A program made the position numbers and the translations under genes. From positions 13,968-77,967 of the forward strand of contig JAHFIQ010000003.1 of NCBI GenBank assembly GCA_023246355.1: a stretch of 64,000 nt of DNA. The letters run 5' to 3'. How positions within the stretch are numbered: the first letter of the stretch is position 1; every line of letters begins with the position of its first letter. This DNA comes from Candidatus Uhrbacteria bacterium. Its GTDB lineage: Bacteria; Patescibacteriota; Patescibacteriia; UBA9934; GWF2-40-263. Positions 3,166 to 63,966 of the stretch are shown here, piece by piece. Under the pieces are notes generated by a model. It had not been told where the DNA came from, searched no databases, and saw only the letters and a program-made list of their open reading frames with translations.

Positions 3166-4734
3166 ATGCGTCGTCTGTGGATAGTTTTTGCTCTCAGCTT
3201 TTTTGTTTTTCCAACGTGGGTCCACGCCGCGTCGGCTGATTTTTTGGATCCTGTGGTCGACTCGTTTGAGTCGTCTTTGGTGTGCACGGGTTGGAGCGAT
3301 GGTGGATGTCGATCGATGTTTCTGATCGCGGGAAAGAATTTTTTAAACAGTAACGGCAGTCCTGGCGTGAAAGTGGGCAACGAGTGGGCAGATGTGCTGC
3401 ACGCAACCAGTACACGCATTATGGCTGTTGCCTCAGAGGCTGCCCTTGAAAAAGCGCCGATTGTGTCTGTTGATACAACCCTTCATACCCCGACTCTTGA
3501 AACAACGGACGAGACGCTGAACGGGATCTTTGCTGATTCTGTTCAAGTGGCCTTGGATGCAATTCAGACAACGAGCGATGGCACGCGCTATATTTCTGCT
3601 GGTCCCAAATATAATGACATCCCTCGCGTGTACTATCGTGATTCGTATTGGACCTCTGGAATGATTCTACTGATCGAACCCTACGTTGTCCGTGATCAGA
3701 TTTTGCTTCTGGCTCAAGGCATCGAAACCAACGGCTCCGTTCCCAGTGCCACGCCAGTGGATCCTGACGGCTATCGTTTGGGTCTGTGGGAAGACCATCT
3801 TGATTCAGGCCCGTACTTTGACATGCTGGTGTATGACTATGTGCGCTGGACGGGCGACACGTCTATTTTGACTGAGCGCGTAAATGGCAGGACGATTTTC
3901 ACGGCCATGGAAGATGTGCTCAGTTATTTATCCACACGTGACTCCGACGGCGATTATCTGCCAGAGAAACCAGAGAATTCTTTGCAGGATTGGCTTGATA
4001 GCATTCCACGCAGTGGGGAAGTTCTGTCTAATCAAGTTCTCTATTATCGCGCCCTTCGCAACCTTGTAGAGATTTCAGGTCTCATGAACAAGGCCAGTCA
4101 TGCAGAAGCGTTTCATCGACAGTCCCTGCTTGTGCGTTACCAGATCAATCGTCTGTTTTGGAATGAAGATGAGGGAACATATTTTGAAAGTTGCGATAAA
4201 GACAACTGCGTAAAGCGCGTGACCAACGAATCAGCCCTCGCGATCCTCTACGAAGTCGTTTGGCCGCAAAATCGAGATCGATTATTCGACAGTCTTCTCA
4301 CGCTTCATTCAAATCTGAATGACGAGATTCCTTTTGATGATTGGGGAGTGCTCAATGCCTGGCCGCTGTATGACGGCTTTACACCCTATGATTACCAAAA
4401 CGGAACCGACTGGCCATTTTTGGACGGCATCAATGCGGGCGCTCGACTCAAGTACAACAATGCGGATTGGTATTATCCACTCACACGGTGGTGGACGTTC
4501 AACAAGGAACAAGGAAGCGGTCGGGTTTTACCAGAGTATGTCTCACCCGTGGATGAAGATGGAGGTGATGAACAAGCGTGGAGCGTGAATCCGGCTGTGA
4601 GCTTTGTCCGATACGGGCTTGGTGTGGATCCTGACATCGACGGGGCGTACACCACCAAGCATTCCCCAAACGGGGAAACCTTCCTGCGTGACGCCTTTGT
4701 CCGCGGCCACCGCATTTCCGTGAATGCGCAATAA
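3166..4734 (+). CDS. secreted glycoside hydrolase-like protein, probable six-hairpin (alpha/alpha)6 glycosidase fold (GH63/GH37/debranching-enzyme-like)
   Basis: N-terminal signal peptide MRRLWIVFALSFFVFPTWVHA. Asp/Trp-rich motifs (YYRDSYWTSG, DGYRLGLWEDHLDSGPYFD, DWPFLDG) reminiscent of six-hairpin glycosidases. Family not resolved by eye. Confidence 0.4.
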   Translation: MRRLWIVFALSFFVFPTWVHAASADFLDPVVDSFESSLVCTGWSDGGCRSMFLIAGKNFLNSNGSPGVKVGNEWADVLHATSTRIMAVASEAALEKAPIVSVDTTLHTPTLETTDETLNGIFADSVQVALDAIQTTSDGTRYISAGPKYNDIPRVYYRDSYWTSGMILLIEPYVVRDQILLLAQGIETNGSVPSATPVDPDGYRLGLWEDHLDSGPYFDMLVYDYVRWTGDTSILTERVNGRTIFTAMEDVLSYLSTRDSDGDYLPEKPENSLQDWLDSIPRSGEVLSNQVLYYRALRNLVEISGLMNKASHAEAFHRQSLLVRYQINRLFWNEDEGTYFESCDKDNCVKRVTNESALAILYEVVWPQNRDRLFDSLLTLHSNLNDEIPFDDWGVLNAWPLYDGFTPYDYQNGTDWPFLDGINAGARLKYNNADWYYPLTRWWTFNKEQGSGRVLPEYVSPVDEDGGDEQAWSVNPAVSFVRYGLGVDPDIDGAYTTKHSPNGETFLRDAFVRGHRISVNAQ

Positions 4735-4737
4735 AAA

Positions 4738-4767
4738 ACCCACAGCTTATGCTGCGGATTTTTTTGC
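4738..4767 (+). terminator. putative intrinsic terminator after the glycosidase gene
   Basis: CCACAGC-TTAT-GCTGCGG imperfect hairpin followed by ATTTTTTTG directly after stop codon 4732-4734. Confidence 0.4.
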
Positions 4768-4947
4768 CTTCGAGAGGCGGATGGCTTTCTGTCTTCGGTT
4801 GCCAGCAAGTTGGACTTTGCGTTCCAGCTTCCAGGCGGTGCGGACTTGTTTTCGTTTTCCAGGCATAGGGGATAGTGATTTCAACAGCAAGATAGCTCAG
4901 CCTGAGTTTTTCGTCAAACGAAACCAGATCGAGTATACTACTCATGT

Positions 4948-5397
4948 ATGGATTCGGTTCTTTCTACCAGCGTAAACGTTCTTCAACTTGTGAGTCCTGG
5001 GATGGTGTTGTTTGTGACAACCCTTGTTGTGTTTGGGTCCGTGTTCACGCTGAGTTTTTTGATTGGCTCCAAACCTTCCGTGGTAAAGCCACTCACCGGT
5101 GGACTCCTCATCCTGTTGTTTCTCATGCTGGGCATGGTCGCGATTGAATTTTCTGCGGCCGCCACGCCCTCGTATACGTTTGGTGAGTTTGCCTCTCTTT
5201 CGGAGGCGCTGTCCACTCATCGCTGGCTGCTGTTTCAGTTACCGATTCTGCTCACAATGACGAGCCTGATGATTTTGCATGTGTACGGTGAAAAGATCGC
5301 CGATCGACACGCCACTCCCTATCGCGTTGCCGTGATCCTGTCGATGGCTCTGAGCTTTGCATCCCTGATCGCCATAGCATTTGAATCGATGGTTTAA
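4948..5397 (+). CDS. hypothetical integral membrane protein
   Basis: 149 aa, 4 hydrophobic helices. No motif recognised. Confidence 0.4.
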   Translation: MDSVLSTSVNVLQLVSPGMVLFVTTLVVFGSVFTLSFLIGSKPSVVKPLTGGLLILLFLMLGMVAIEFSAAATPSYTFGEFASLSEALSTHRWLLFQLPILLTMTSLMILHVYGEKIADRHATPYRVAVILSMALSFASLIAIAFESMV

Positions 5398-5400
5398 ATT

Positions 5401-5742
5401 ATGTTTCATTTTTTTCGAAATCGCATTCACGAGTCGCTTGCCCTTGCCGGGCTCTTTGCCGGAGCCATCGCTCTTCACGTTGCCTGGATCGATAATCTTC
5501 TGATCACACGTAGTCAGCTCATTCGCGAGTTCATCACGCTGAATCCTGCGATCGGTCCCATCAGTGGATTGTATGTTGATACCCTTGGCGCCTTCTTCGT
5601 GAGCTTTCTGCTCGCCGCCTTTTTCTGGCGCGGCCGTGATGTCTCGCACTGGCGCGATCGGGTGTTCTGGTTTTTCGTCACCTCGATCGTGATCTTCTTG
5701 CTCATGACCCTGCCGTTTGTGTACGGGTTTGTGGTGAGTTGA
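5401..5742 (+). CDS. hypothetical integral membrane protein
   Basis: 113 aa hydrophobic. Starts 4 nt after the previous ORF (likely co-transcribed). Confidence 0.4.
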   Translation: MFHFFRNRIHESLALAGLFAGAIALHVAWIDNLLITRSQLIREFITLNPAIGPISGLYVDTLGAFFVSFLLAAFFWRGRDVSHWRDRVFWFFVTSIVIFLLMTLPFVYGFVVS

Positions 5743-5797
5743 GCAAAACCGTTTTCCGTCGTAGACTTGATCCAAGTTAAGTCTTTTTTATTTTTGT

Positions 5798-7285
5798 ATG
5801 GAAATCAAGGTTTACAAGGGGGATCTGACACAGGAAAAAGCCGATCTGTTGGTCGTGGGGCATTTTTCAGACGCCAAATCATTGGAGGGTCCCGTGGCCG
5901 CCGTTGATACCGCCATGGGAGGCAGGCTCTCAAGGCTCATGAAGGATGATGGATTCAAGGCAAAGCTTGCCTCTACGTTTTTGACTCATACAAACGGAGA
6001 GATCGCGGCCAAACGCGTCCTTGTTGTTGGACTGGGGAAAAAAGACGAGGTGAATCTCGAGGCTGTTCGTCAGGCCGCGGCTGTTGCTGTGAATGTGGCC
6101 AAGGAGTGTGGGGCAAAAATAATGGTGTCTGAGCATCACGTCCCTGGGGAACTCAAGGCAGGTGACTGTGCTCAGGCAATGGTTGAGGGAGCACGGCTGG
6201 CAGATTACAGCTTCAGTCGCTACAAAAAGCCGTCGCAAAAATCTCCAAAACTTTTTGCGATCGTCACAAATGACGGAAAGATTTTGCGATCGTCAGAAAA
6301 AGGTTTGGAACTGGGCGAACTCGCCGCCCGTGGAGTTGTCTTTGCTCGAGACCTCGTAAACACCCCAGCACACGACATGCATCCTGAAACGCTCGTGGAC
6401 ATGGCCAAGTCGATCGCCAAGGGCAAGTCCTCGATTCGTGTTCGTGTATTTGATCGCGAGGCTCTCAAACGCATGGGCGCTGGCGGTATTCTGGGTGTCG
6501 CACAAGGATCTGATCATCCGCCCTACCTTGTGCACATGACCTACAAACCAAAGAAGCCCACAAAAAAGTCCATCGCGCTTGTGGGCAAAGCAGTGACCTT
6601 CGATTCCGGTGGGCTTTCACTGAAGCCTGCCGATTACATGATGACGATGAAGTGTGACATGGCTGGCGCGGCTGCGGTGTTGGGGGCATTCAGTGTGATC
6701 GCAGACCTTGCCCCAGGAGTCGAAGTGCATGGAATTTTTGGCGCGGTCGAGAACATGCCATCCGGCGGCGCGATTCGTCCAGGGGATGTACTCACAGCCA
6801 TGAACAAAAAAACCATGGAGGTGTTGAATACGGACGCAGAAGGTCGTCTCACACTCGCTGATACACTTTCCTACGCGGCTAAGTTGAAGCCTGCGTTTAT
6901 TGTTGATTTGGCAACGCTCACCGGAGCATGTGTTGTGGCTCTTGGAGAGGAGATTACAGGCGTGATGTCAAACGACGACAAGGTTGCCTCACAGACCCTG
7001 GACGCGGCAGCTGCGGCTGGGGAGAAAATGTGGCGCCTTCCACTTGAAAAGAATTACAAGAAAGTTATCAAATCCCAAATCGCTGACCTGCAAAACATCG
7101 GCAACAAATGGGGTGGGGCGCTCACCGCTGGCTTGTTCCTCGAAGAATTTGTAGACAAGACACCCTGGGCGCATTTGGACATCGCTGGCCCTGCCTTTGC
7201 CGAACGCGAGATTGATCCCTACACCCACAAAGGGGCGACAGGGCATGGTGTGAGAACGCTTTTGGCTCTCCTCAGATCTCTCTAG
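5798..7285 (+). CDS. pepA: leucyl aminopeptidase (M17 family)
   Basis: 495 aa. M17 signature NTDAEGRLTLADTL and conserved metal-binding region (KPADYMMTMKCDMAGAAAV). Confidence 0.9.
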   Translation: MEIKVYKGDLTQEKADLLVVGHFSDAKSLEGPVAAVDTAMGGRLSRLMKDDGFKAKLASTFLTHTNGEIAAKRVLVVGLGKKDEVNLEAVRQAAAVAVNVAKECGAKIMVSEHHVPGELKAGDCAQAMVEGARLADYSFSRYKKPSQKSPKLFAIVTNDGKILRSSEKGLELGELAARGVVFARDLVNTPAHDMHPETLVDMAKSIAKGKSSIRVRVFDREALKRMGAGGILGVAQGSDHPPYLVHMTYKPKKPTKKSIALVGKAVTFDSGGLSLKPADYMMTMKCDMAGAAAVLGAFSVIADLAPGVEVHGIFGAVENMPSGGAIRPGDVLTAMNKKTMEVLNTDAEGRLTLADTLSYAAKLKPAFIVDLATLTGACVVALGEEITGVMSNDDKVASQTLDAAAAAGEKMWRLPLEKNYKKVIKSQIADLQNIGNKWGGALTAGLFLEEFVDKTPWAHLDIAGPAFAEREIDPYTHKGATGHGVRTLLALLRSL

Positions 7286-13193: not shown

Positions 13194-14852
13194 CTATGCC
13201 GTGGCTTCGCTACCGGCGGGCTTGGCCTTCTTGCCGCGAGGCTGACGCTTCCGCGGGGGAAGCTTGAGCTTGCCGGGTTCGGCTGCTCCGGCGGCCTCGG
13301 GCTGACTCGGCGGCGGTGCGGGCTCTTCGCTGCCTCCACCTTCCTCGCCACCTTGCGGCGGCTCGGCGGGCTTGGGCAGTTCCAGTCCCTGCGACCTCGC
13401 GAGTTCCATGAGCAGGTCCTTGCGGACCTCACGCAGAACCCAGCAGTCCCAGGCCCAGATTGCCAGACCCAGGGTCTGCACCGTGGTCTTCTTCATGATC
13501 CACGCCGCGAGAGGACATTCACCCTCGTTCTGGCGCATGGCCTTTTGCAGACGTTCCGGGGTCTTTTCACCCTCGAGGATTTCGGCGAGTGCCGGCCGGT
13601 CATGGGCATCCGTTCCTGCGATGCCCAGCGCGTGCACGATGTCGTGGCGCGCTTCGTTCACCTGATCGCGGATCCTCTCTCGGACCAGCCGTCCCATACC
13701 CTGGAGCGTATTCCTGGCCACCTCTTCGGTGGTGCCAGGGACCAACCAGCCGGTGCCGATCATGTACTCGATCGGCGGCTGCCTGATCGCCCTGCCCACG
13801 AGCGAGCCGCCGGAACCCGGATGCACGTCGTAGAGGCTCACGCCCAGGAGCGCCAGGGCGTCCATCTTGACCTCGCCCATGTCCAGCTCGTGCATCTCCA
13901 GCTTGCCAACCTCTCCGGGCAGACCCCAGACCTTGAGGGTGACCACGTTCCACCTCTCCTCGACGAGGAAGAGCTGGTCAGCCGGCACCTTCGCAGCCGT
14001 GAAGATGATGGCAGGGCTCTGCTTGGCGAGCTGCGCAACCTTGCCTCCGAGGCGAGCGACGATCGTGTAGTCGAACTTGTTGGGGTCGCTCCCTCGCGAC
14101 TTGTAGACCGGGAGCTGTCCCTTCATGGACTCAGGTCCCTGCGGCGCGAGCTGCAGGTATTCCACGGCCCGTCCGATGTTGTTTGCGATCGGCGTGACCG
14201 CCTGCCAGGCGTTCCTGGGATCCTGGGCGGCCATGCGGGCCACGACCGTGTTCCAGCGACCGATCGTTTCCACCCGGGCTAGGCCCAGGGGAATGGCACG
14301 GACGCGTCCGTTTTCGATCCCGGTGAAGGGGTCGAAGTCGCGGATGAAGATGCACAGCATCGGCTCGCCCGCACGGATCGCTCCGGTCGTCTGATCGATC
14401 GTCACGTACTCGATGAGCGATCCCAGGCCGTTGGTGACGCGCAAGGGCCGCACTTCGACGTTGAGGCGCTCGGAGGGATTCTCTGGATTGGGAAGTTCGG
14501 TCCTTCCTGCGATCACCAGATCGTAGTCGGGGACCATCTGGTACTTGGGCTTCCCATCCTCACCCAGGACCGGAGCATCACCATCCATCTCCTGTTCGAC
14601 GGTCCAGCCCACGCGTTGAGCCTCGCCACCGAAAGCGACGTGAGCCACGAAGGGGACACCTTCGATGACTTCGCCCTTGCCGTTGACGGACCAGACCGTG
14701 CACTCTTCGATGAACTTGCAACGCTCGGAGAAGGAGAGCTTCTTTCCTCCACGGACGCGATCGTTCATCATCCTGGCGGCCAGGCGGATGAGATCCGTGT
14801 AGATGGCGGCGAGTGCCGGCACGCGCTCGGGAAGAACCAGTTGAGTTGACAT
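13194..14852 (-). CDS. uncharacterised 552-aa protein in a high-GC island, with Gly/Pro/Lys-rich C-terminal tail
   Basis: Long ORF. Start placed at ATG rc 14850-14852 (MSTQLVLPERVP...) rather than track end 14963. Stop is TAG rc at 13194-13196. GC visibly about 65-70%. No Walker or other catalytic motif recognised. Tail PQGGEEGGGSEEPAPPPSQPEAAG...KRQPRGKKAKPAG. Confidence 0.5.
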   Translation of the reverse strand: MSTQLVLPERVPALAAIYTDLIRLAARMMNDRVRGGKKLSFSERCKFIEECTVWSVNGKGEVIEGVPFVAHVAFGGEAQRVGWTVEQEMDGDAPVLGEDGKPKYQMVPDYDLVIAGRTELPNPENPSERLNVEVRPLRVTNGLGSLIEYVTIDQTTGAIRAGEPMLCIFIRDFDPFTGIENGRVRAIPLGLARVETIGRWNTVVARMAAQDPRNAWQAVTPIANNIGRAVEYLQLAPQGPESMKGQLPVYKSRGSDPNKFDYTIVARLGGKVAQLAKQSPAIIFTAAKVPADQLFLVEERWNVVTLKVWGLPGEVGKLEMHELDMGEVKMDALALLGVSLYDVHPGSGGSLVGRAIRQPPIEYMIGTGWLVPGTTEEVARNTLQGMGRLVRERIRDQVNEARHDIVHALGIAGTDAHDRPALAEILEGEKTPERLQKAMRQNEGECPLAAWIMKKTTVQTLGLAIWAWDCWVLREVRKDLLMELARSQGLELPKPAEPPQGGEEGGGSEEPAPPPSQPEAAGAAEPGKLKLPPRKRQPRGKKAKPAGSEATA

Positions 14853-15064
14853 GGCAGTTGCTCCTGCTCTGGTTGAGAAACACTGGCGGCTCGCCCGGCC
14901 GAAAAGATTATCGGCCGGGAAATGCCAGAGGCGAACACTACCAGCCAGACTCTCAAATGTCAATGATCGTTGGTTTCAGTTGATGATCAGTGACAATTTC
15001 AAATAAAAACCATGTTTTTTGCGTCAAACTCGCTTGACAAAGTCGATGATTTAGCCTAGGGTCG

Positions 15065-16078
15065 TTGTCTGGAGGACTCATGAAAAAGTTCGAAGGCTGG
15101 ACGGCATTGTTTAGCCTGAAGCACAAGAAAGGTGTGAATTTCGAGGAGGCCCTGGCAGCCATTGCCGGTGACAAAGAACCCGACGCAGATGCTGACGCAG
15201 CCTTCGATGATGCCACACGTGACAGGATCCAAGACTTCCTCATGGACCAAGATGCGTTCATGAAGACGAACGCATCTGACAAGCGTCTGCCGCAGTGGAC
15301 GAAACTCACTGCGAGCATTCAAGGCGCTCCTGCACCAGCAGCCAAGAAAGCTGCAGCCCCCAAAGCAGCAGCACCAAAGCCTGCACCAGCCGCGAAGAAG
15401 CCTCCCGCTCCCGTCCAACCAGCGCCCCCACTGGCTGCGTCGACTGCTCCTGCCCCAGCTCCACCAGCACCAGCAGCAACACTGGTCCTGCCGACACGAC
15501 AATCTGCTCAACCTGTGAGCGCCAATGCTCTTGTGGCAGCTGCCAGAGCAGCGGCTCCTCCAGCACCACCAGCGTTTCAAGGATTTGGTGGCAGGGTGGA
15601 ACCACCCGATGATGGTCACGGTCGTGAAGATCGTGGCGATCGTGACAGAGGTCGAGGCCGTGATCGTGGAAACCGCGGTGAGGATGATGCTCGGAAGCAG
15701 CAAGATGAGACAGCGCGGCTTGCCAAGGAGGAAGAGGTCCGCAGGGCAGCGTTTGTGAGAGCGCACACGCCGCCAGCGGAACACGTTGCTCTTTTGCACC
15801 TTCCTCTCTACGTTCTGTGTCGAGAGAGCTATTCAGAGGTGTGCGTGAAAGCGCGCAGTTCTGATTCAGCGATTCGTGCACAGGGAGAGGCACAGTTGAA
15901 AACAAGCCTGACACTCCTGCACGGATGGCGAGACGGAAAGTCTGGCCCTGAAAAAGCGGCCATTGCCCGTCACATCCTTCGGCTCATCGACGAGCTTGCA
16001 AACAGGCGTGATCTCACGGATCCCACGTGGTTCATTTGCAACTTCGTCACAGGGAAGTGGGAAGACGCTCCCACCTAG
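15065..16078 (+). CDS. uncharacterised protein with histone-H1/AlgP-like KAAAP/PAP repeat region and an RG/RD-rich segment (high-GC island)
   Basis: 337-aa ORF divergent from 13194-14852. Alternative start MKKFEGW at 15080. Low-complexity AAKKAAAPKAAAPKPAPAAKKPPAP then RGDRDRGRGRDRGNRGEDD. Structured N- and C-terminal domains, family unknown. Confidence 0.45.
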   Translation: MSGGLMKKFEGWTALFSLKHKKGVNFEEALAAIAGDKEPDADADAAFDDATRDRIQDFLMDQDAFMKTNASDKRLPQWTKLTASIQGAPAPAAKKAAAPKAAAPKPAPAAKKPPAPVQPAPPLAASTAPAPAPPAPAATLVLPTRQSAQPVSANALVAAARAAAPPAPPAFQGFGGRVEPPDDGHGREDRGDRDRGRGRDRGNRGEDDARKQQDETARLAKEEEVRRAAFVRAHTPPAEHVALLHLPLYVLCRESYSEVCVKARSSDSAIRAQGEAQLKTSLTLLHGWRDGKSGPEKAAIARHILRLIDELANRRDLTDPTWFICNFVTGKWEDAPT

Positions 16079-23758: not shown

Positions 23759-24415
23759 ATGGGTCAACTCAGTGCGTTCGATCAAGAGGTCGTCGACATC
23801 CTCCGTCATCGTGGAATTTTCGAGAACGTGGATGCGATGCGTTTCCACTTGGACAACGGCGTGATCATCTTCAGATGTCCTGATGGTGATCAGATGCTTG
23901 ATCGCATCAGGCATGATGAACAGGTTGCACGTGAAGCTGGTGGTGAACTGCGCCCGCATCTGCTGACCTGTCACGGTGGGAGCATGGTGCTTGCACCCGA
24001 CTCTCCGCTCTATCCTGGAATGGGGGCCGACCAGCTCTACCTGACGATGATCAGGGAGGCAGAGGCGCTCAAGGACATCAAGACGGTTTCCGCAGAGATT
24101 CACGCTCCTTGTGGAAAGGCGATGAGTCTTGGACTCACGCTCGTGGAGCAGATCGTTTTGCTCATGGCGGCCAAACCGCGAATCAAGGCGATCGATCCAA
24201 CCAACAAGGTCGTCTGTCGCGTCCACATCAACGATCGAAGTGGCCGCAAGCGTACCTACTTCATCTCGCGGGCCAAGTGGATCGCGTTTTGGGAGAGCGA
24301 GGGACGACAGGTGTGGGGATACCGGTTCCCAGTCGATCCTTATGCGTCACAGCTTCCTGGTGAGGCACTCGCAGGAGCTGATCACCATGAGACCAGCGAC
24401 CTGGTCGGCATGTAG
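23759..24415 (+). CDS. hypothetical protein, paralog of 22865-23647 with CPDGD ... HAPCGKA motifs; GC elevated
   Basis: 218 aa; C-x-D-G and H-x-x-C-G motifs; GC visibly higher (about 57-60%) than the ATP synthase genes. Confidence 0.4.
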   Translation: MGQLSAFDQEVVDILRHRGIFENVDAMRFHLDNGVIIFRCPDGDQMLDRIRHDEQVAREAGGELRPHLLTCHGGSMVLAPDSPLYPGMGADQLYLTMIREAEALKDIKTVSAEIHAPCGKAMSLGLTLVEQIVLLMAAKPRIKAIDPTNKVVCRVHINDRSGRKRTYFISRAKWIAFWESEGRQVWGYRFPVDPYASQLPGEALAGADHHETSDLVGM

Positions 24416-53657: not shown

Positions 53658-54745
53658 AGATACGGCTTCAATTTTCCAAACTGCTCCTCACACGTGAATT
53701 TCGCCGCGTGGTCGTAGGCACCCAGCCCAAGTTTGATTCGCAATTCTCTGTTGCGCGAAAGCTCGAGGATCGCTTGAGCAAGACCCTCCACGTTTTGATC
53801 TGGCAGTACAATCCCTGTCTCCTGGTCGATAACCGCTTCGGTCACACCTGTCACGTTTGTGGTGATGCTTGGAAGTGCGTACTGAGCTGCCTCAAGAAAC
53901 ACTAACCCAAATCCCTCCTTGTCAACGGGATCGTTTGCAACAGGCATCACAAAAACATCTGCGCTTGCATAGAACTGTCCCTTTGTCGCCTGATCAACCT
54001 GTCCGTGGAAACGCACAAGATCCTGGAGTCCAAGACCCGTGATCATTTCCTGAAGCGTCGTCTGCTCTGGTCCAGCCCCGACGATATCGTAGACGAAATT
54101 CTCAAGCAATCCTTGACGACGCAACAGAGACAAGGCGGTGAGCACCTGCGCATGGCCTTTACGTTTAATGAGTCGAGAAACGGTCAACAAATGAAACCGT
54201 CCGTCAGATGCCGGCTTGGTTGGCAGAGGCTGTGTGGGCAGGCAGGGGTAGATCACGAGCAATTCTTTCACTCCAAATACCTGTGCGACTTCTTGCGCTA
54301 GCGCCTGAGAATTTGCCACAACCACCCGAGCATTTTTGAGAACCTGTGTCGCCTGAGCCTTCTTTCGTGCCGAACGTTGTGCGAGGCGAATATCCATACC
54401 GTGCACGAACACAATGTACGGAATCTTTGTGTGTTTCATCGCGACCATGGCGGCCGTCCCAAATGGCAGCACATGACTTGTCAAAATAAGTCGATAGCGA
54501 TCTTGGTAGCTTTTCAAGATCCTGACGGTTTTATACCAACGAGGGAAAACCCATCGGTAAAGAAGTGAGGATCGGTACACCGGATAGCCAGAGACAGGAT
54601 CAACAGACTGCCACGCGCTGTTTGGCTCTGTGAGAACCTCAATGTCATCCTTGAAAAAACTGGCAAGGAGACTGAGATAACGAGCCACGCCTCCTTCCAT
54701 GGGAGGAAAGTCTGGGGTAATGAGGAGCATTTTTTTTTCGTTCAT
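53654..54745 (-). CDS. family 4 (GT-B) glycosyltransferase
   Basis: GT4 C-terminal pattern (GFGLVFLEAAQYALPSITTNVTGVTEAV) and EX7E-like motif. Confidence 0.85.
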   Translation of the reverse strand: MNEKKMLLITPDFPPMEGGVARYLSLLASFFKDDIEVLTEPNSAWQSVDPVSGYPVYRSSLLYRWVFPRWYKTVRILKSYQDRYRLILTSHVLPFGTAAMVAMKHTKIPYIVFVHGMDIRLAQRSARKKAQATQVLKNARVVVANSQALAQEVAQVFGVKELLVIYPCLPTQPLPTKPASDGRFHLLTVSRLIKRKGHAQVLTALSLLRRQGLLENFVYDIVGAGPEQTTLQEMITGLGLQDLVRFHGQVDQATKGQFYASADVFVMPVANDPVDKEGFGLVFLEAAQYALPSITTNVTGVTEAVIDQETGIVLPDQNVEGLAQAILELSRNRELRIKLGLGAYDHAAKFTCEEQFGKLKPYL

Positions 54746-56181
54746 ACCAGTGGATGAACAGCCCTGAATAAAAATCGTAGATCATCCAGACGCAACGACT
54801 TCGTAAGAAACAGAGAGAGAAGATAGACGACACCTCCCATGGGAATCACCAGCATCCAACCTACGAATGGTTTAGCGAGCACAACGATCATCAACATCAA
54901 GCACCCCGAGAAAAAAATTGGCAGGAGCGTTCGTACGAGATGCGCGAGACGAAACGTTGGAATCAATCCTGGGACAAACGAGAGCCCAGCGAGAAACATA
55001 AAACTGAAGCAGACCAGAGCGGCCCAGACCGCGCCCATAATTCCAAGTTCAGGGATGAGCAAAAAATTCAGTCCGACGTTGATGAGCATGGTGACTCCCA
55101 TGATCGCTGTTTTTGTGGCCTGGCGACCAGAGGCGTTTAAGAGACTGCCAACAGGAAAATCTAAAAAAATCGGGATGAGGACAAAGATGAGCATCGAAAG
55201 CACAGCCGCCGCATCAGCATACCCAACGCCTGCGAGCTCAACGACCTCTGGAGCAAGAGCAGAGAGACCCAGTACGATCGGTGTGGAGAGAATCGCCATG
55301 TACCAGATGCCGCGCAAAAAAATTCTCTCCAGTGCAACAGGGTCACGTCCCACAACCGAACTCATTGAAGGATACAACGCTGCCGTGAAGGCCAGAGGAA
55401 GAAATTGAAATGCATAGGTAAACTTGTACGCAAGGGCGTAGATTCCTACGGCCGTGGTATCAAGAAATTTTGAAATCAGAATCGAATCAACGTAGGAATA
55501 GGTTTTAACAAACAGGGCAGCCAACGCAAAAGGAAATGCTGCAATGAGGAGCCGGCGACTTGAAAGAGCATCAAAGGTCGGGATAAGCACCTGCATGCCA
55601 AGTCGCCTGACTACATTGAAACCAGCGACAGACACGTTTACGATTGATCCTGCCATCAGCGCCACAATCAACAGCGGCAGGGACGGTGCTTTCCACAACA
55701 CAATCCCCCCAACGATCCCCGTGGCAAATTGTCCAAAAAAAACACCAAGAGATTCATAGCGCAGCTGCTGGAATCCGCGCAGCACGCCGTAGAACAAGAG
55801 ATGTAAGGCATCCAGTGATAACACAACACAGGCAAGAGCAATGAGATGCTGAAGATGATCACTGTAGCCAAGCACACGGCCCGTCATTACAGCACCTAGT
55901 GACGCAAGAACAAGAAGGGGAAGCTTGATGGCGAGGGCCTGCGAAAGCAGTTTGGCAGCGTTTGATGGTGCCTTTGCGACTTCGCGAATCACCACGGGCG
56001 TCACACCCAAATCTGCGACCACGGTAAAGATCACGGTGATCGAGACAGCGAGGAAATACTCCCCTGTTGCCTCAGGCAGCATCACTCTTGCCACAAACAA
56101 AAAGTAGACAAAAGCAATGATCTTTTGTCCAACGGATGCCAGTGTCAAAAAGGCCGTGTTTCGAGCTACATGTTCGGTCAC
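54742..56181 (-). CDS. oligosaccharide flippase (Wzx / MOP superfamily)
   Basis: 479 aa, about 12-14 TM helices, Wzx-type N-terminus (LASVGQKIIAFVYFLFVARVMLP...GEYFLAVS). Confidence 0.8.
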   Translation of the reverse strand: MTEHVARNTAFLTLASVGQKIIAFVYFLFVARVMLPEATGEYFLAVSITVIFTVVADLGVTPVVIREVAKAPSNAAKLLSQALAIKLPLLVLASLGAVMTGRVLGYSDHLQHLIALACVVLSLDALHLLFYGVLRGFQQLRYESLGVFFGQFATGIVGGIVLWKAPSLPLLIVALMAGSIVNVSVAGFNVVRRLGMQVLIPTFDALSSRRLLIAAFPFALAALFVKTYSYVDSILISKFLDTTAVGIYALAYKFTYAFQFLPLAFTAALYPSMSSVVGRDPVALERIFLRGIWYMAILSTPIVLGLSALAPEVVELAGVGYADAAAVLSMLIFVLIPIFLDFPVGSLLNASGRQATKTAIMGVTMLINVGLNFLLIPELGIMGAVWAALVCFSFMFLAGLSFVPGLIPTFRLAHLVRTLLPIFFSGCLMLMIVVLAKPFVGWMLVIPMGGVVYLLSLFLTKSLRLDDLRFLFRAVHPLV

Positions 56182-56244
56182 AGTGCGATCATTGTAGCGG
56201 AATCAGGGGAATTATAAAACCCTGCGTTGAGAGCAGGGTAGAAG

Positions 56245-57231
56245 CTAGAGCGCCCGTTCGAACAAGTCAGGACCGCTCCACCGACGCAACGACGACTTGC
56301 CATAGGCGGCGCGAACCGGGCTGCTGATCTGTACGACACGTGCCACATCGCGAAGTTGCTGGACCAATCCGTCACTGCTGCCAAAGCCTTCCTGCCAAAG
56401 CCTGAACAGGACGCTGTGCAGGTCCATGACCAGGGCCGCCTCCACGCCGGAGTAGATTTCCGATTGCGGATCCGACGGAGCCCAGACGTTGGTTGTGGAT
56501 GCCGGGGCACGACCCAGAGCTTGTTGGAGACGCGTTCTCAGAGATCGCGCGGTTGTTTGCGGACCGGACTGGATCGTGAGATCCCAGACAAGCTTTGCAA
56601 GCCGGAACTTCTCCTGGACGCCCTCATGTGCAGGTTCACATTGGTAGCCCATGGAAAGATACGCGGTGAAGCTTGCGCCGTTTTCAACACGCCCCCTGGG
56701 AAACAGGTTCACGGCTCGCATGCAGGCAGTGAAGAGCGTGTCTGCGATGGGTCCGGTTCTGACCAGCTTGATCAGGTCTGAGTGTGCGGGGAAAATCTCG
56801 ATCATCAGATCGACCTCTTCCTCTCCTGTTGCTGTATCGATCTCAAACCTCGTGATCGTGCCGCGCAAGGCGACAAGGCTTGGCGTCCAGCGCGCTGGCA
56901 CCACATCCCCGCAGGAGAGATCGACCCACGGGATGACCCGGGGGAACAGAACCCGTGAAGGAACGCGGTGGGTGACCAGTTGTACCACCCCTGCTTGCTG
57001 AGACTCTCTCAAGCCCTCAAGCTGAGGAAAGTCCACAAAGAGTTGTCGCCAATCCGCATGGCTCAGGCGATCGTCCTCTTCGTCGTTGATGGTGCTCTGT
57101 GCGTTGAGCAGATGAACAGCCGCTCCCCCGTGACTCCTCCCTTCTTTTGCAAGCGTTCGCGTCGTTGCCACACGGACACGACTTTGGTCCTCTCCCATGA
57201 ATAGCTCCAGAGTGCCCAGCCATCTAAACAC
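56245..57231 (-). CDS. uncharacterised protein, high-GC island 2 (paralog of 57283-58287)
   Basis: 328-aa ORF (possible alternative start MGEDQS at 57198). GC visibly about 60-65%. C-terminal block VLFRLWQEGFGSSDGLVQQLRDVARV resembles VLESLWKAAFAQDGDGGREGKVAAQLRRQG of the neighbour. Confidence 0.45.
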   Translation of the reverse strand: MFRWLGTLELFMGEDQSRVRVATTRTLAKEGRSHGGAAVHLLNAQSTINDEEDDRLSHADWRQLFVDFPQLEGLRESQQAGVVQLVTHRVPSRVLFPRVIPWVDLSCGDVVPARWTPSLVALRGTITRFEIDTATGEEEVDLMIEIFPAHSDLIKLVRTGPIADTLFTACMRAVNLFPRGRVENGASFTAYLSMGYQCEPAHEGVQEKFRLAKLVWDLTIQSGPQTTARSLRTRLQQALGRAPASTTNVWAPSDPQSEIYSGVEAALVMDLHSVLFRLWQEGFGSSDGLVQQLRDVARVVQISSPVRAAYGKSSLRRWSGPDLFERAL

Positions 57232-57282
57232 AAGCTGTCGCCTCTGTCAATCTATCCTGACAAAGTTAAAAGCAGGTGAAGA

Positions 57283-58287
57283 TCACCTGCCGCGCCTGGG
57301 GAATTGAACAACATGTTCATCGCTGAGCTCGTCCAGAAGATCTGGCGCGCCCAGCATGGTGAGATTGCCAGCTTTGCGATTGGCCTGCATGAGTTCCTTG
57401 AGAGGTCCCACGCCAATGCGTGTGGCTTCTAGGCGCTCGAGTGGGTAGCCCTGACGACGAAGCTGTGCCGCGACCTTACCTTCGCGACCGCCATCACCGT
57501 CTTGAGCGAACGCAGCCTTCCAGAGGCTTTCCAAAACCGGCTGGAATTCGATTGCCACGATGTCGTCGATGGCCTCCTCGTGAGCACCGCCGCCTTCCCA
57601 AGGGTCGTCGTCAGGAATCACAGGGACATCAAGCAGATCTGGTTCCACCACTCGCGCCCACGGATACACCTGTCGACCCATGAGTACGAAAGGACCCGAG
57701 AACGGCCAGTGCGCGGCCTCGTATTTCACTCCTTCACGCAGGTTGTGGTTGAGTGCCCGCGCGGCTTGCTTGCGAAGGGCATCTGTCGAAGAGGCTCGCC
57801 AGTAGCAGACACGACCGAGGTCACGCGCGATCGCGAAGGTGATCTCGAGGTACGTCCCCTCCGTTGCACGTAGGGGATGGAGCCCTTCATGGGCCTTCCT
57901 GATAGCCTCCAGCGCGTCGAACCGAGCCTCCACGGACTCAGGAAGCGGGGCCTCGAGTGGATCGAACTTCACGCGACCGGCCACATCTCGCTTCTCCCGC
58001 TTGGCGTGAAGCCGACGCAGGAGAGGCTCATCGAACGGAGAGATGATCACCTGCCAGCGCCAGCGATCGTCCATGCCTATGATGGACGGCGGCACTTTGT
58101 TGAAGGTCGTGCGCAGACCAATAGCTGCCGGGATCTCGAATCCACTACTCATACGCACAGTGGCAATCTTGTGCCTGCGTGCAAGATCCAGATCAGGCTT
58201 GATTTCTTTCCTTCCCTGCTCTCCTTTGAGCTGGGGGCTGAACGACACCTCCGCGAAGTGCTGCAGGGTCCTATCTTGAGCGGCCAT
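57283..58287 (-). CDS. uncharacterised protein, high-GC island 2
   Basis: 334-aa ORF, GC about 60-65%. No catalytic motif recognised. Weak internal similarity to 56245-57231. Confidence 0.45.
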   Translation of the reverse strand: MAAQDRTLQHFAEVSFSPQLKGEQGRKEIKPDLDLARRHKIATVRMSSGFEIPAAIGLRTTFNKVPPSIIGMDDRWRWQVIISPFDEPLLRRLHAKREKRDVAGRVKFDPLEAPLPESVEARFDALEAIRKAHEGLHPLRATEGTYLEITFAIARDLGRVCYWRASSTDALRKQAARALNHNLREGVKYEAAHWPFSGPFVLMGRQVYPWARVVEPDLLDVPVIPDDDPWEGGGAHEEAIDDIVAIEFQPVLESLWKAAFAQDGDGGREGKVAAQLRRQGYPLERLEATRIGVGPLKELMQANRKAGNLTMLGAPDLLDELSDEHVVQFPRRGR

Positions 58288-58335
58288 ACCTACCTCCTAC
58301 CAGCCAGATTGAAGCACGAGAACCTGGGAAAGTCA

Positions 58336-58368
58336 AAGCCGGGCTTTTGCCCGGCTTGTATTTCTTCG
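58336..58368. terminator. hairpin AAGCCGGGC-TTTT-GCCCGGCTT between rpsI and the high-GC island
   Basis: Perfect 9-bp stem. T-rich on the plus strand (TGTATTTCTTC) and TTTGACTTT on the minus-strand transcript, so a possible terminator/attenuator after rpsI. Confidence 0.4.
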
Positions 58369-58369
58369 A

Positions 58370-58774
58370 TTAACGTTTTGACCATTGAGGTGAGCGACGC
58401 GCAGATTTCTTTCCTGGTTTCTTACGCTCACGTCGGCGGGCATCTTGACTGAGAAAGCCGAGCTTTTTGAGCGCACTGCGAAATTCGGGATTGAACTCTA
58501 TGAGGCCACGGGCGATTCCCAGGCGGATACTATCAGCTTGACCGCGCACCCCACCACCAACGACATGGACCGTGACGTCAAAGCTGTCCTGTGTGCCAGT
58601 TTCTTTGAGGGGCGCCATCACCGATTCACGCAGAGTGATGAGTGGAAGATATTCGTTGAGGCCGCGTTCGTTGATGACGACTTTTCCTGATCCACCATGA
58701 TGCAACCGAACACGGGCTGTGGCAGCCTTGCGTCGCCCGAGTGATTCAATGTATTTGCCTGTCAGTGCAGCCAT
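58370..58774 (-). CDS. rpsI: 30S ribosomal protein S9
   Basis: C-terminal ...RRRERKKPGKKSARRSPQWSKR; S9 family blocks. Confidence 0.9.
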   Translation of the reverse strand: MAALTGKYIESLGRRKAATARVRLHHGGSGKVVINERGLNEYLPLITLRESVMAPLKETGTQDSFDVTVHVVGGGVRGQADSIRLGIARGLIEFNPEFRSALKKLGFLSQDARRRERKKPGKKSARRSPQWSKR

Positions 58775-58775
58775 A

Positions 58776-59132
58776 CTAATTTTTGATCGTCAAACGTTTT
58801 AGGCGTGGAGAACGCTGCTTGTTTTTTGGGAGCATGCGCGAAACAGCCTCTTTCAAAACCTTGGAAGGGTCGCTCGCCATCAGTCCTTTGAGAGTTCTCA
58901 TTTTCAAACCACTGGCGTAGGTCGTGTGTCGATAATAAATCTTTGCCTCTTTCACAGGATGGATTTTCATTTTTGAGGCGTTTGTCACCTGCACAAAATC
59001 ACCACCATCCACATTGGGGGCAAAGGAAGGCTTGTGTTTTCCGATGAGCAAAGCAACAACCGTGGTCGCCAAACGACCCGGAACCTTCCCTTCTGCATCA
59101 ATCGTGTGAATGTCGCGTTCTACGATTTTCAT
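58776..59132 (-). CDS. rplM: 50S ribosomal protein L13 (short form)
   Basis: N-terminal IDAEGKVPGRLATTVVALLIGKHKP. 118 aa, shorter than E. coli L13. Confidence 0.85.
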   Translation of the reverse strand: MKIVERDIHTIDAEGKVPGRLATTVVALLIGKHKPSFAPNVDGGDFVQVTNASKMKIHPVKEAKIYYRHTTYASGLKMRTLKGLMASDPSKVLKEAVSRMLPKNKQRSPRLKRLTIKN

Positions 59133-59484: not shown

Positions 59485-60192
59485 CTAGGCCTCCTGAGTC
59501 ATTCCATGCCCTGGTGTTAACTGAGCAAACGAGTCAATCAAAATCTTTGCTGATTGTTCAACGGCCTCCTGTGGGGTGATCGTTCCGTCCGTTTCAATGG
59601 TCATGATGAGCTTGTCAAAGTTGGTGATTTCACCAACACGCGTGTTTTCCACACGGTATCCCACATTGCGAATCGGAGAAAAGAGAGAATCGATGGCAAT
59701 CGTTCCAAGCTCCTGCACTTCATTCACTCGTTCCTCGGTTGGAGAATAGCCACGACCCTTACGCACAGTGAGTTCTGCATCAAAAACCGCGGAATCCTCG
59801 GTCACCGTAGCGATGACCAAATCTGGATTCATAATTTCGACATCCGCGTTTGGAGTAATGTCAGCAGCCGTAACCGTTTTTGAGCCTTTGACGTGCAAAG
59901 AAAGCTTCACAGACTCATCAGAAAAACACTTCAATCGCAAACCCTTTAGATTCAAAATGATTTCAAGGGCATCTTCCTTCACACCCTTTACGGCCTGAAA
60001 TTCGTGGTTCACGCCTTTCATTTTCACCGCGGTCACGGCGGCTCCTGAAAGAGAGGAAAGAAGAACGCGGCGCAGGGCATTTCCCAGCGTCGTTCCGTAC
60101 CCATGGAAACAAGGCTCGACAATCAACACCCCTTCGTTGGGGCGAGTGCCGGCTTCGTACTGGATACGCGATGGAAGAAGGATGTTCTCCAT
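59485..60192 (-). CDS. rpoA: DNA-directed RNA polymerase subunit alpha, N-terminal domain only (no alpha-CTD)
   Basis: 235 aa; alpha-NTD dimerisation/assembly blocks (GYGTTLGNALRRVLLSSL, ELTVRKGRGY). ORF ends 6 nt before rplQ, leaving no room for an alpha-CTD. Confidence 0.85.
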   Translation of the reverse strand: MENILLPSRIQYEAGTRPNEGVLIVEPCFHGYGTTLGNALRRVLLSSLSGAAVTAVKMKGVNHEFQAVKGVKEDALEIILNLKGLRLKCFSDESVKLSLHVKGSKTVTAADITPNADVEIMNPDLVIATVTEDSAVFDAELTVRKGRGYSPTEERVNEVQELGTIAIDSLFSPIRNVGYRVENTRVGEITNFDKLIMTIETDGTITPQEAVEQSAKILIDSFAQLTPGHGMTQEA

Positions 60193-62088: not shown

Positions 62089-63966
62089 TCACTCTAAAAC
62101 CGCCTTTATTCGACGAATACCGCTTGCCACGGCTTCTTCTTTTTGAATGCGAAACGTCCCCAAACCTCCGGTTCTTTCCACATGTGGACCGCCGCAGACT
62201 TCCTTGCTAAACGACTCTGCTGAAGCGTCTCCACCGATAAAGTAGACTTTGATCTTCCCACCGAGCTGTGCATACTTGTCTTCAAAGAGCCCGATCGCCC
62301 CACGATTCTTCGCCTCATCAAGATCAAGAATCTCAAAATGGACGGGCAGATCTTTTTGGATCTGTTCGTTCACAATCATCTCAACCTGCTTCTTTTCCTC
62401 TTCCGTCATTTTTTGAGGATGAGAGAAATCAAACCGCAGACGCTCTCCGGTGATGTTGGATCCCTTTTGTTCCACATGGGATCCCAAGACGGTTCTCAGA
62501 GCCTGATGCAGCATGTGTGTTGCCGTATGAAGACGTACGACTTCATCAGAATGATCAGCAAGCCCACCAGCGAATTTTTGCGCAGAGCCTGCTCGTGACA
62601 AATCTTGATGTTTTTTAAATTCGTCCTGAAAAACTTCCCGGTCGACCTGTTGACCTTTTTCTCGTGCCAACTCCTCAGTGAGCTCCCAAGGGAACCCATA
62701 AGATTGATAGAGGTTGAAGGCATCAGATCCGCTCACGATGCCCTTCATTGAGAGCTTTTCAAACTCTCGGAGGCCTTTTTCCAATGAGGCTTTGAACTTT
62801 TCTTCCTCCTTGGTGAGTTCATCCACAATCACGTGCTTCTTTTGGAGCAATTCTGGATAGGCATTTGCATACTCTTGAATAAACGCCTGAGCCACAGATC
62901 CACAAAAAACATCCTTCGCACCGATCATATTTCCAAACCGCACAGCACGTCTCACCAGACGGCGAACGTAGTAACCCTGATCTTTGTTGGAGGGAACCAC
63001 CCCGTCGGCGATCAGAAATGTCGCAGCACGAATATGGTCGAGAATCACTCGGAAGGCATACGTCCCATTGGTCTCATTGGACGAATAGGACCTACCAGAA
63101 ATTCCTTCGATCACTCGGCGAGCCTCATCAAACGCATCAATCAAAAACATGTCTGGCTCGTTAGCCACAGCGGCCGCAAGGCGTTCCAGCCCCCCACCAA
63201 AATCCACATTTGCCTTTGGCAGTAATTCAAATCCATCGGACGTCTTCTTGTACTGCATGAATACGTTGTTGCCAATTTCCATGAACCGACCGCAATCACA
63301 ATTCACGTGACAGGGTTCCGTGGAGAATGACGACTTCTCATGAAGTCCGCGTTCAACGCCAAAATCCCAAAACAATTCCGAGTCCGGCCCGCCGGGCTCT
63401 CCGATGGGCATGTTTTCAGGAATCCCCGATCGCGACCACCAATTTTTCTTTTCGCCATAAGAAAAAATTCTCCCGTCCTGCATCCCATCGCGTTCTGAGA
63501 AATCCACATCCTTTGCCTGAATTCCGACCGAAGCAAACACCTCCTTCCAATAGCTCACCGTTTCATCGTCGCGGGGGATCTCCTTGTTGCCGGAGAACAC
63601 GGTCACGTACAAACGTCTCGGATCCAACGGTAGCTCTCGTGTGAGAAACTCAAACATCCAGGCGACTTGTTCTTTTTTGAAGTAGTCACCCAAGGACCAA
63701 TTCCCGAGCATTTCAAAAAAAGTCGTATGGCGATTATCCCCTACCTCATCGATATCCTGTGAGCGAAAACATTTTTGTGAATCCGCAAGACGTGTCCCTT
63801 GTGGATGGGTCTCACCCAACAAATAGGGAACCATTGGCTGCATGCCTGAGCCTGTAAACAGTGTGGATGGGTCATTTTCTGGCAAGAGCGAAGAGGATGG
63901 AAGGACCTGATGACCGCGGGCAGCGAAAAAATCAAGGTAGCGTTGTCGGATCTCGTGGATAGTCAT
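62089..63966 (-). CDS. alaS: alanyl-tRNA synthetase, truncated form (catalytic plus tRNA-recognition plus editing core, no C-Ala domain)
   Basis: N-terminal class II motifs (MTIHEIRQRYLDFFAARGH, FTGSGMQPMVPYLLGETHP). Editing-domain HxxxH region (TATHMLHQALR). 625 aa versus about 870 canonical. Confidence 0.85.
   Translation of the reverse strand: MTIHEIRQRYLDFFAARGHQVLPSSSLLPENDPSTLFTGSGMQPMVPYLLGETHPQGTRLADSQKCFRSQDIDEVGDNRHTTFFEMLGNWSLGDYFKKEQVAWMFEFLTRELPLDPRRLYVTVFSGNKEIPRDDETVSYWKEVFASVGIQAKDVDFSERDGMQDGRIFSYGEKKNWWSRSGIPENMPIGEPGGPDSELFWDFGVERGLHEKSSFSTEPCHVNCDCGRFMEIGNNVFMQYKKTSDGFELLPKANVDFGGGLERLAAAVANEPDMFLIDAFDEARRVIEGISGRSYSSNETNGTYAFRVILDHIRAATFLIADGVVPSNKDQGYYVRRLVRRAVRFGNMIGAKDVFCGSVAQAFIQEYANAYPELLQKKHVIVDELTKEEEKFKASLEKGLREFEKLSMKGIVSGSDAFNLYQSYGFPWELTEELAREKGQQVDREVFQDEFKKHQDLSRAGSAQKFAGGLADHSDEVVRLHTATHMLHQALRTVLGSHVEQKGSNITGERLRFDFSHPQKMTEEEKKQVEMIVNEQIQKDLPVHFEILDLDEAKNRGAIGLFEDKYAQLGGKIKVYFIGGDASAESFSKEVCGGPHVERTGGLGTFRIQKEEAVASGIRRIKAVLE

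Follow-up and report, generated by a model that had tools for sequence, protein, structure and literature searches.

What are two GC-rich genes without recognizable relatives doing between the end of a ribosomal operon and the start of a glycan cluster? The question is raised by a stretch of 64,000 nucleotides of contig JAHFIQ010000003.1 (hereafter 'the window'), whose host belongs, by the names on its closest records, to Candidatus Uhrbacteria (Patescibacteria, or Candidate Phyla Radiation, CPR). Two long minus-strand open reading frames (ORFs), which we call A and B, lie there between rpsI and wzx, and the window's ORF list holds no further ORF in this interval. A first-pass annotation of the window had placed the pair directly downstream of rplM-rpsI and upstream of wzx, and Pfam matches to the flanking genes confirm this position. 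The two ORFs are also confirmed (Table 1), except that B most likely starts at 57198 and not at 57231.

As a whole, the locus is best explained by two ancient tandem duplicates of a family restricted to a Uhrbacteria subclade, derived from one old insertion, organized as autonomous units and inherited by vertical descent. We consider this explanation likely. It would correct a plausible but wrong inference, since the GC-rich block beside the ribosomal operon would then be an old, vertically inherited, lineage-specific gene pair.

Relationship between genes A and B

Searches of a 5.8-billion-protein collection returned 10 clear matches for A and 8 for B (42-75% identity), all of them annotated as hypothetical and all from assemblies of Uhrbacteria or Patescibacteria; in one Ca. 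Uhrbacteria metagenome-assembled genome, for instance, the databases list HZA87_01220 and HZA87_01215 simply as 'hypothetical protein'. In both genes, codon mismatches relative to the closest genomes are least frequent at the second position, intermediate at the first and most frequent at the third, a pattern which argues for purifying selection on the protein. Both are therefore real, conserved protein genes. The listed ORF of B opens at GTG 57231. However, its homologs align from MGEDQ, which corresponds to ATG 57198, and GTG 57231 falls three bases ahead of the -10 hexamer of a conserved promoter-like element, at the upstream edge of this element. B is thus most likely a protein of 317 amino acids starting at ATG 57198.

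No domain had been recognized in the first-pass annotation, and our searches agree. Pfam, NCBIfam, PHROGs and PADLOC hold no match for A or B, nor does Pfam for 40 members of the A family, the best stray hits (E-values 0.005-0.5) pointing to unrelated families. Sequence searches of the PDB with profiles A1, A2 and A4 gave nothing below an E-value of 0.4. When the A profile was run exhaustively with HMMER against 1.84 billion cluster representatives, it matched 37 of them, and no A-family homolog appeared outside the Uhrbacteria clade. A literature search for publications on Uhrbacteria found nothing describing the A/B family or the rpsI-wzx site. A and B belong to no described family; they form part of an undescribed one in Uhrbacteria, which comprises about 40 clusters when the identity threshold is 50%. 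In this respect they resemble other orphan families of CPR/Patescibacteria: they have no Pfam, NCBIfam or PDB relatives, are confined to one candidate phylum-level lineage and are named only as hypothetical. They differ in what the present work adds, namely paralogy, a constant genomic location, a promoter that is conserved and a GC excess that persists.

Are A and B related to each other? The first-pass annotation had taken them for diverged duplicates on the basis of two shared blocks. Pairwise BLASTP finds no similarity (best E-value 6.1) and there is no DNA-level repeat between the two genes. Profile-profile comparison by hhalign with shallow alignments (10 A and 8 B sequences) pairs only the C-terminal helix, VLESLWKAAF...QLR in A with VLFRLWQEGF...QLR in B, over 54 columns at 26% probability (P = 7e-4). 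Such results are what one would expect if the two genes were unrelated and the profile similarity came from shared composition and a chance helix motif. With deeper profiles (58 A-type and 15 B-type sequences, widened with representative matches and with proteins from 66 related genomes), however, hhalign aligns 203 collinear columns (31-290 of A with 91-307 of B) with a probability of 95.8%, an E-value of 8e-9 and a score of 68.3. The best of 25 composition-preserving column shuffles of the B profile scored 18.8 (E = 0.12) and the reversed profile 14.5. Sixteen other single proteins, among them equally GC-rich orphans of the same junction and both ORFs of the GC-rich 'island 1' described below, gave E-values of at least 0.004 and failed to align.

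Other lines of evidence agree with the deep alignment. Iterated searches with hidden Markov models recruit the B family when started from A, and vice versa. The order of strands and helices in two independent AlphaFold2 (AF2) models matches the hhalign alignment, the B model being poor, and in one related locus (L079) this site holds two A-like genes in tandem (A-profile E-values 1e-13 and 1e-21). We judge it very unlikely that A and B are unrelated; the profile alignment and its clean controls point to ancient tandem duplicates, as the first-pass annotation had proposed. The BLASTP null, taken by itself, would have led us to dismiss paralogy wrongly. As for the blocks then invoked, the C-terminal one is what the profile comparison aligns, but the pairing of the Pro/Trp-rich central blocks is unsupported: B's VLFPRVIPWVDLS aligns with A's N-terminal PDLDLARRHKIATVRMS.

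History and base composition of the rpsI-wzx junction

Using the wzx flippase as a probe, we fetched the loci of 66 Uhrbacteria species (designated below by L numbers) and scored the junction, which was readable in 60 species; the counts that follow concern only loci in which rpsI and wzx are both readable. In 24 loci (23 in the tree tally), rpsI lies within 160 bp of wzx without any cargo. About 15 loci carry A only, three, which belong to the window's clade, carry A and B, one carries B only, and about 15 carry other ORFs. Every readable context of an A/B-family member is this same junction, down to about 25% identity and to an E-value of 6e-6. The closest relatives share the order rpsI-A-B-wzx, one relative (L005) having B only, and the window's clade (L012-L014, L001, L002) has A/B genes throughout. 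Such genes are missing from about 40% of the Uhrbacteria with the same ribosomal operon.

In a neighbor-joining tree of wzx, all outgroup clades have the empty junction, and the A/B family is confined to one subclade. Its distribution there is patchy: of two sister species, one has B only (L017) and the other A only (L020), and L021 and L022 have no gene although they stand next to the A-bearing L018 and L015. A leftover TTGAC box is kept in L019 and L022. In L009 and L011, the proteins in the position of B are homologous. L023 and L033 have at the junction a pair of proteins of 274-289 amino acids with the same promoter, which hhalign aligns to the A family over 156 columns (E = 6.6e-5); they are probably a very diverged branch of this family.

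The divergence of A follows that of wzx. Over gap-poor columns, A and wzx distances are correlated (Mantel rho 0.62, reached by 0 of 5000 permutations), as are the identities measured from the window (Spearman 0.89). When raw ORFs, whose N-termini are extended, enter the Mantel test, rho is only 0.21 (p about 0.1), which is an alignment artefact. With mean identities of 34% for A and 56% for wzx, A changes at about 1.5 times the rate of wzx, and B is faster still.

We propose that an ancestral gene was inserted a single time in the spacer that runs from the rpsI terminator to the wzx promoter; rpsI and wzx are direct neighbors in outgroup Uhrbacteria. This gene would later have been duplicated in tandem together with its promoter, and vertical descent with repeated loss of one or both copies would have followed. 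Each copy would form a self-contained unit, comprising an extended -10 promoter-like element, a Shine-Dalgarno sequence, an ORF and a hairpin terminator.

Is this history compatible with the base composition of the two genes? The first-pass annotation had estimated their GC content at 60-65% against about 50% and read it as the sign of a high-GC segment taken up by the genome. GC is indeed raised, to 60.1% in A and 59.4% in B against 50.9% in the window (standard deviation of 1-kb windows, 3.1 points) and 0.50-0.54 in the flanking wzx and rpsI. These values lie at or just under the bottom of the estimate, some 200-bp windows reaching 0.62-0.64. At third codon positions (GC3), both genes have 0.65, against a median of 0.52 for the 65 ORFs (standard deviation 0.06), and rank second and third after ORF 13194-14963. 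The deviation is clear overall and in GC3 but modest at four-fold degenerate sites (0.62 and 0.64 versus 0.54, standard deviation 0.066). First and second codon positions carry much of the GC excess: Gly, Ala, Arg and Pro make up 30-35% of A and B versus 24-27% of their neighbors, and Arg largely outnumbers Lys. Codon use is atypical as well. Of the Arg codons, AGG makes up 6 of 33 in A and 4 of 29 in B, whereas rpoA and the genes for ribosomal proteins have none among 94; A and B also make little use of TTG for Leu.

These features, together with the patchy distribution among Uhrbacteria, the variation of junction cargo between lineages and a codon usage resembling that of the GC-rich ORF 13194-14963, could be taken as the un-ameliorated signature of a donor from which the segment was recently acquired. 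Several observations contradict this. Orthologs of A and B have a GC3 at least equal to that of the flanking rpsI and wzx in 22 of 22 cases (19 genomes; equal in the two L012 genes), with a mean excess of +0.14, reaching +0.31 (Wilcoxon p = 5e-7), and smaller excesses at first (GC1, +0.09) and second (GC2, +0.04) positions. Gene GC3 scales with flank GC3 with a slope of 0.92 across hosts of 37-60% GC. As the GC and codon deviation is common to orthologs in all hosts, it is not diagnostic of recent transfer. Moreover, third codon positions are saturated relative to the closest relative, even in rpsI and wzx (0.51-0.66 mismatch), so that a donor GC signature cannot have survived.

The genomic context leads to the same view. 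Orthologs occupy this site in close and distant relatives alike, throughout the immediate clade, an outcome that the first-pass annotation had itself named as speaking against its reading and that is largely borne out, and outgroups have rpsI beside wzx. The 64-kb window has neither tRNA genes nor Rfam families, and it has no mobility genes, integrases or mobile-element scars. Flanking direct repeats or target-site duplications are absent, the only repeats being chance ones of 12-16 nucleotides, and neither A nor B has a relative in 2.9 million viral contigs. Compared with a recently acquired genomic island, the pair shows the deviant composition, but it is present in all of the window's clade, is congruent with wzx and has no hallmark of mobility. 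With A divergence tracking that of wzx and no homolog outside the clade among the 1.84 billion representatives, we hold recent uptake to be highly improbable, and the least probable of the explanations discussed here.

The GC excess rather appears to be an intrinsic, maintained trait of the family, due in part to amino-acid composition and in part to third-position bias. The excess could be caused by selection acting on the nucleic acid itself, by context effects of the GC-rich codons or, if the junction is prone to recombination, by GC-biased gene conversion. A bolder scenario would see in A and B a structurally new, strongly expressed protein, which arose or diverged beyond recognition in the terminator-promoter spacer of a Uhrbacteria ancestor, and whose GC3 excess of about 14 points is actively kept up in each host, whether through selection on mRNA or DNA or through GC-biased gene conversion at a junction prone to recombination. 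We give this scenario an outside chance, although a better one than any of the rival explanations. If it were true, this would be a rare case of a vertically inherited bacterial gene resisting compositional equilibration while its synonymous sites were saturated many times. The offset in GC3 and codon usage in hosts of 37-60% GC offers a test case for gene conversion versus selection in bacteria.

The first-pass annotation had listed A and B, with another GC-rich segment, island 1, among several high-GC segments that the genome appeared to have taken up. Island 1 consists of a 589-amino-acid minus-strand ORF (13194-14963; GC 0.64, GC3 0.78, the highest GC3 in the window) and an adjoining Ala/Pro-rich ORF of 337 amino acids on the plus strand (15065-16078). 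Neither matches Pfam, PHROGs, NCBIfam or PADLOC, and no relatives were found in viral contigs, in one metagenome pattern scan or in the fetched Uhrbacteria loci. Their codon bias resembles that of A and B (AGG for Arg, CTG/CTC for Leu). We found no homology between island 1 (13194-16078) and A/B and rejected the link: the proteins are unrelated and the likeness is only compositional. Another ORF, 23759-24415 (218 amino acids, GC 0.57), has the fourth GC3 of the 65 ORFs (0.64) and no Pfam family. GC-rich orphans of this kind may recur in this genome as a class.

The general concept of a chromosomal hot spot, where accessory genes collect between conserved core genes, comes from bacterial pangenome studies. 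The rpsI-wzx junction, which holds no gene, A, B, both, or unrelated genes in different Uhrbacteria, appears to behave as a slow version of such a hot spot: its cargo turns over slowly, with one dominant family found nowhere else, and the window has none of the integrases or mobile-element scars of a hot spot. Cargo unrelated to A/B includes a glucose-6-phosphate dehydrogenase (G6PD; L077, 4549-5946) and a DUF218 protein (L065, 5119-5922). In five high-GC genomes (L038, L045, L046, L049, L050; about 4225-5997) the junction is occupied by an orphan family of 541-601 amino acids that is slightly GC-poorer than its host. In L005, which has B and no A, rpsI is followed by a 220-nucleotide element (5800-6030) with long, near-perfect terminal inverted repeats (-120.6 kcal/mol, z = -8.8), which may be an insertion akin to a miniature inverted-repeat transposable element (MITE) or a structured RNA. 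On a metagenome contig (L006, 1-3928), B and wzx are preceded on the opposite strand by genes for a BNR-repeat protein and YchF, not by the ribosomal operon; either the region upstream of B was rearranged or the contig is an assembly chimera.

Transcription signals of the two units

Patescibacteria are marked by losses of ribosomal proteins. One could imagine A and B as the far end of the ribosomal operon, expressed by read-through of the rpsI hairpin and acting on ribosomes or translation, and the first-pass annotation had suggested that they are read through from this operon unless the hairpin terminates. Indeed, rpsI is the last gene of an rpsM-rpsK-rpsD-rpoA-rplQ-rplM-rpsI block whose order is the same in relatives, and A follows on the same strand, 82 bp downstream. 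The hairpin noted after rpsI is confirmed (Table 1), but its U-tract is short and interrupted (TTTGACTTT), and Patescibacteria are described as having reduced ribosomes and ribosome-biogenesis sets (10.1101/2024.11.29.625318).

The arrangement of signals speaks against such a dependence. A stable hairpin is found at the same offset after rpsI in most Uhrbacteria loci, with or without A, including those where wzx follows directly. In A-bearing genomes, its T-rich tail continues into the -35 box of a promoter-like element which, with a strong Shine-Dalgarno sequence, separates the hairpin from A; the same two signals recur before B. The two genes are moreover missing behind the same operon in 24 species. 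With promoter-like elements and terminators for each gene, read-through from the ribosomal operon is not needed, and we consider a role as distal ribosomal-operon genes quite unlikely. A and B can each be predicted, from the conservation of these signals, to form an autonomous promoter-ORF-terminator unit.

The A-type element is found upstream of A, or of B where it is the sole copy, in L012-L018, L020, L025, L029-L031 and L039, and the B element is kept in L012, L013, L014, L009, L011 and the B-only L005. A-bearing genomes share the consensus TTGAC(T/A)-N14-TG-n-TT(C/A)AAT, followed by AGGAGG and the start codon. The strict motif TTGAC-N15-TGnTWnnWT has exactly two matches in the 64 kb (0.15 expected), upstream of A and upstream of B. 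Within 120 nucleotides of rpsI, it is present in 9 of the 19 loci that have A or B and in none of the 24 empty junctions, for a background of 0.002 per 120 nucleotides; most of the remaining A/B loci show TTAACT or TTAGCT variants. Our generic promoter scan requires an A at the second position of the -10 box and so missed both elements, which were found by comparing relatives.

A hairpin and T-run also follow A in L012, L013, L014, L009 and L011, with differing sequences. The wzx gene has a promoter-like site of its own, of which TACAAT/TATAAT plus CTGTGA is kept in L012, L013, L014 and L009. As its -10 box ends only 9 nucleotides before the GTG start, the wzx mRNA is probably leaderless or near-leaderless.

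Table 1. Genes and predicted signals around the rpsI-wzx junction (positions in the window)
Feature	Position	Strand	Details
rplM	58776-59132	minus	Pfam Ribosomal_L13; upstream of rpsI
rpsI (ribosomal protein S9)	58370-58774	minus	Pfam Ribosomal_S9, E 1.6e-43; upstream boundary of the junction
Terminator-like hairpin after rpsI	58337-58356	minus	AGCCGGGC-AAAA-GCCCGGCT; folding free energy (dG) -18.1 kcal/mol, z -4.7; 13 nt after the rpsI stop
Promoter-like element of A	58308-58336	minus	TTGACT 58336-58331, 17-nt spacer, TG 58316-58315, TTCAAT 58313-58308
Shine-Dalgarno of A (putative)	58293-58298	minus	AGGAGG, 5 nt upstream of ATG 58287; AGGAGG also in relatives
Gene A	57283-58287	minus	334 aa; predicted soluble alpha/beta protein; Uhrbacteria-restricted orphan family
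Terminator-like hairpin at A stop codon	57271-57291	minus	overlaps the stop, then TTTTAAC; dG -13.9 kcal/mol, z -4.1
Promoter-like element of B	57222-57250	minus	TTGACA 57250-57245, 17-nt spacer, TG 57230-57229, TTAGAT 57227-57222
Shine-Dalgarno of B (putative)	57205-57208	minus	GGAG, 6 nt upstream of ATG 57198
Gene B	56245-57198	minus	317 aa from ATG 57198; listed ORF reaches GTG 57231 (328 aa); fast-evolving, probable distant paralog of A
Terminator-like hairpin after B	56219-56239	minus	ACCCTGC-N7-GCAGGGT, then TTTTAT; dG -11.8 kcal/mol, z -4.5; equivalent in relatives
Promoter-like site of wzx	56191-56218	minus	TTTATA-16-TACAAT; -10 ends 9 nt before GTG 56181
wzx-type flippase	54742-56181	minus	Pfam Polysacc_synt, E 2.1e-26; downstream boundary of the junction; start GTG 56181

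The family has a constant position in the genome and a branch of paralogs, and its promoter follows a clear, conserved consensus. This consensus, TTGACW-N14-TGn-TTnAAT, is useful because CPR promoter architecture is poorly documented and because RpoA has no alpha C-terminal domain here. The RpoA of the window (59485-60192) has 235 amino acids, with the N-terminal dimerization and insert domains only, and is 236-256 amino acids long in relatives. This short form may have a bearing on the reliance of the conserved promoters on an extended -10 (TG).

In their architecture, the A and B units recall phage morons, which are single ORFs with their own promoter and terminator, lodged between genes that are adjacent in related phages and deviant in composition (PMC4378225). 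A and B likewise have one ORF each with a predicted promoter-like element and hairpin terminator, are inserted between two genes that are direct neighbors (at most 160 bp apart) in 24 Uhrbacteria species, and differ in GC (0.60 and 0.59) from their flanks (0.50-0.54). However, they are chromosomal, flanked by a ribosomal operon and a core glycan cluster, and have no viral relatives. They are not recent, being vertically inherited across the whole subclade, and their GC is higher than that of the flanks and has persisted over deep time. We would call them moron-like rather than morons.

Proteins and possible roles

What could the two proteins do? Hydrophobic segments are absent from both, and their isoelectric points (pI) are close to neutral. 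A has no transmembrane segment and a pI of 6.5; the maximum 19-residue hydropathy is 1.05 and the pI 6.2-6.5 for the pair. The AF2 model of A, with a predicted local distance difference test score (pLDDT) of 65.9, a core at 80-90 and a predicted template modeling score of 0.63, shows a beta-sheet with long helices, while the B model reaches a pLDDT of 43. Foldseek found no match in PDB and BFVD with an E-value below 0.05 or a TM-score above 0.2 (best E-value about 0.06). Both proteins are predicted to be soluble, cytoplasmic alpha/beta proteins of about 35 kDa, rich in Gly, Ala, Arg and Pro. The residues conserved in the A family are mainly Trp, Pro, Leu, Gly, Arg and Ser, and no catalytic constellation is evident among them. 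Our best guess, offered with low confidence, is that both proteins are dispensable and well expressed, and that they act in the cytoplasm as binders or scaffolds and not as enzymes. The two paralogs may act together or pair where both are present.

Could they instead serve the neighboring glycan pathway, for instance as a cytoplasmic modifier or regulator of repeat units? They always stand immediately upstream of wzx and co-oriented with it, and B stays with wzx in L006, where the upstream context differs. However, wzx heads a wzx-GT4-GT2-wzy cluster (GT4 and GT2 glycosyltransferases and a Wzy-like protein) that is kept in all Uhrbacteria loci regardless of A/B: the layout wzx-GT4-GT2-(GT2)-wzy is the same with or without them, and both its one-GT2 and two-GT2 versions occur in either state. 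A terminator hairpin and the separate promoter-like site of wzx lie between B and wzx, and neither protein bears a signature of glycosyltransferase, acyltransferase or other sugar enzyme. An accessory role in the Wzx/Wzy pathway is, in our opinion, unlikely.

A role in conflict seems slightly less so. Beside a surface-glycan locus, A and B could be cargo of a variable hot spot, such as anti-phage or host-interaction factors, subject to an arms race. The fast evolution of A and the still faster evolution of B, the frequent duplication and loss, the presence of unrelated orphan genes at the same junction in other lineages and the resemblance to phage morons (PMC4378225) would all fit. Yet neither PADLOC nor PHROGs gives a match, no nuclease, ATPase or toxin-like motif is seen, the family never moves to another site and there are no neighboring defense genes. 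We regard this role as rather doubtful.

The explanation we prefer, ancient tandem duplicates in autonomous units under vertical descent, has its own weak points. A persistent GC3 excess and atypical codon use are awkward in a vertically inherited gene. The host tree is a neighbor-joining tree of the single gene wzx and makes the gain and loss counts approximate. The homology of A and B comes from profile methods, pairwise similarity being undetectable, and the B model is poor. Promoters and terminators are predictions drawn from conservation. Finally, the biochemical function has no database match behind it, and the 'non-enzymatic scaffold' follows from the kind of invariant residues. The practical impact of the family is modest.

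Apart from the junction, the window carries a short alanyl-tRNA synthetase gene (62089-63966). Its product has 625 amino acids, against 622-642 in relatives, and apparently lacks the usual C-terminal extension.

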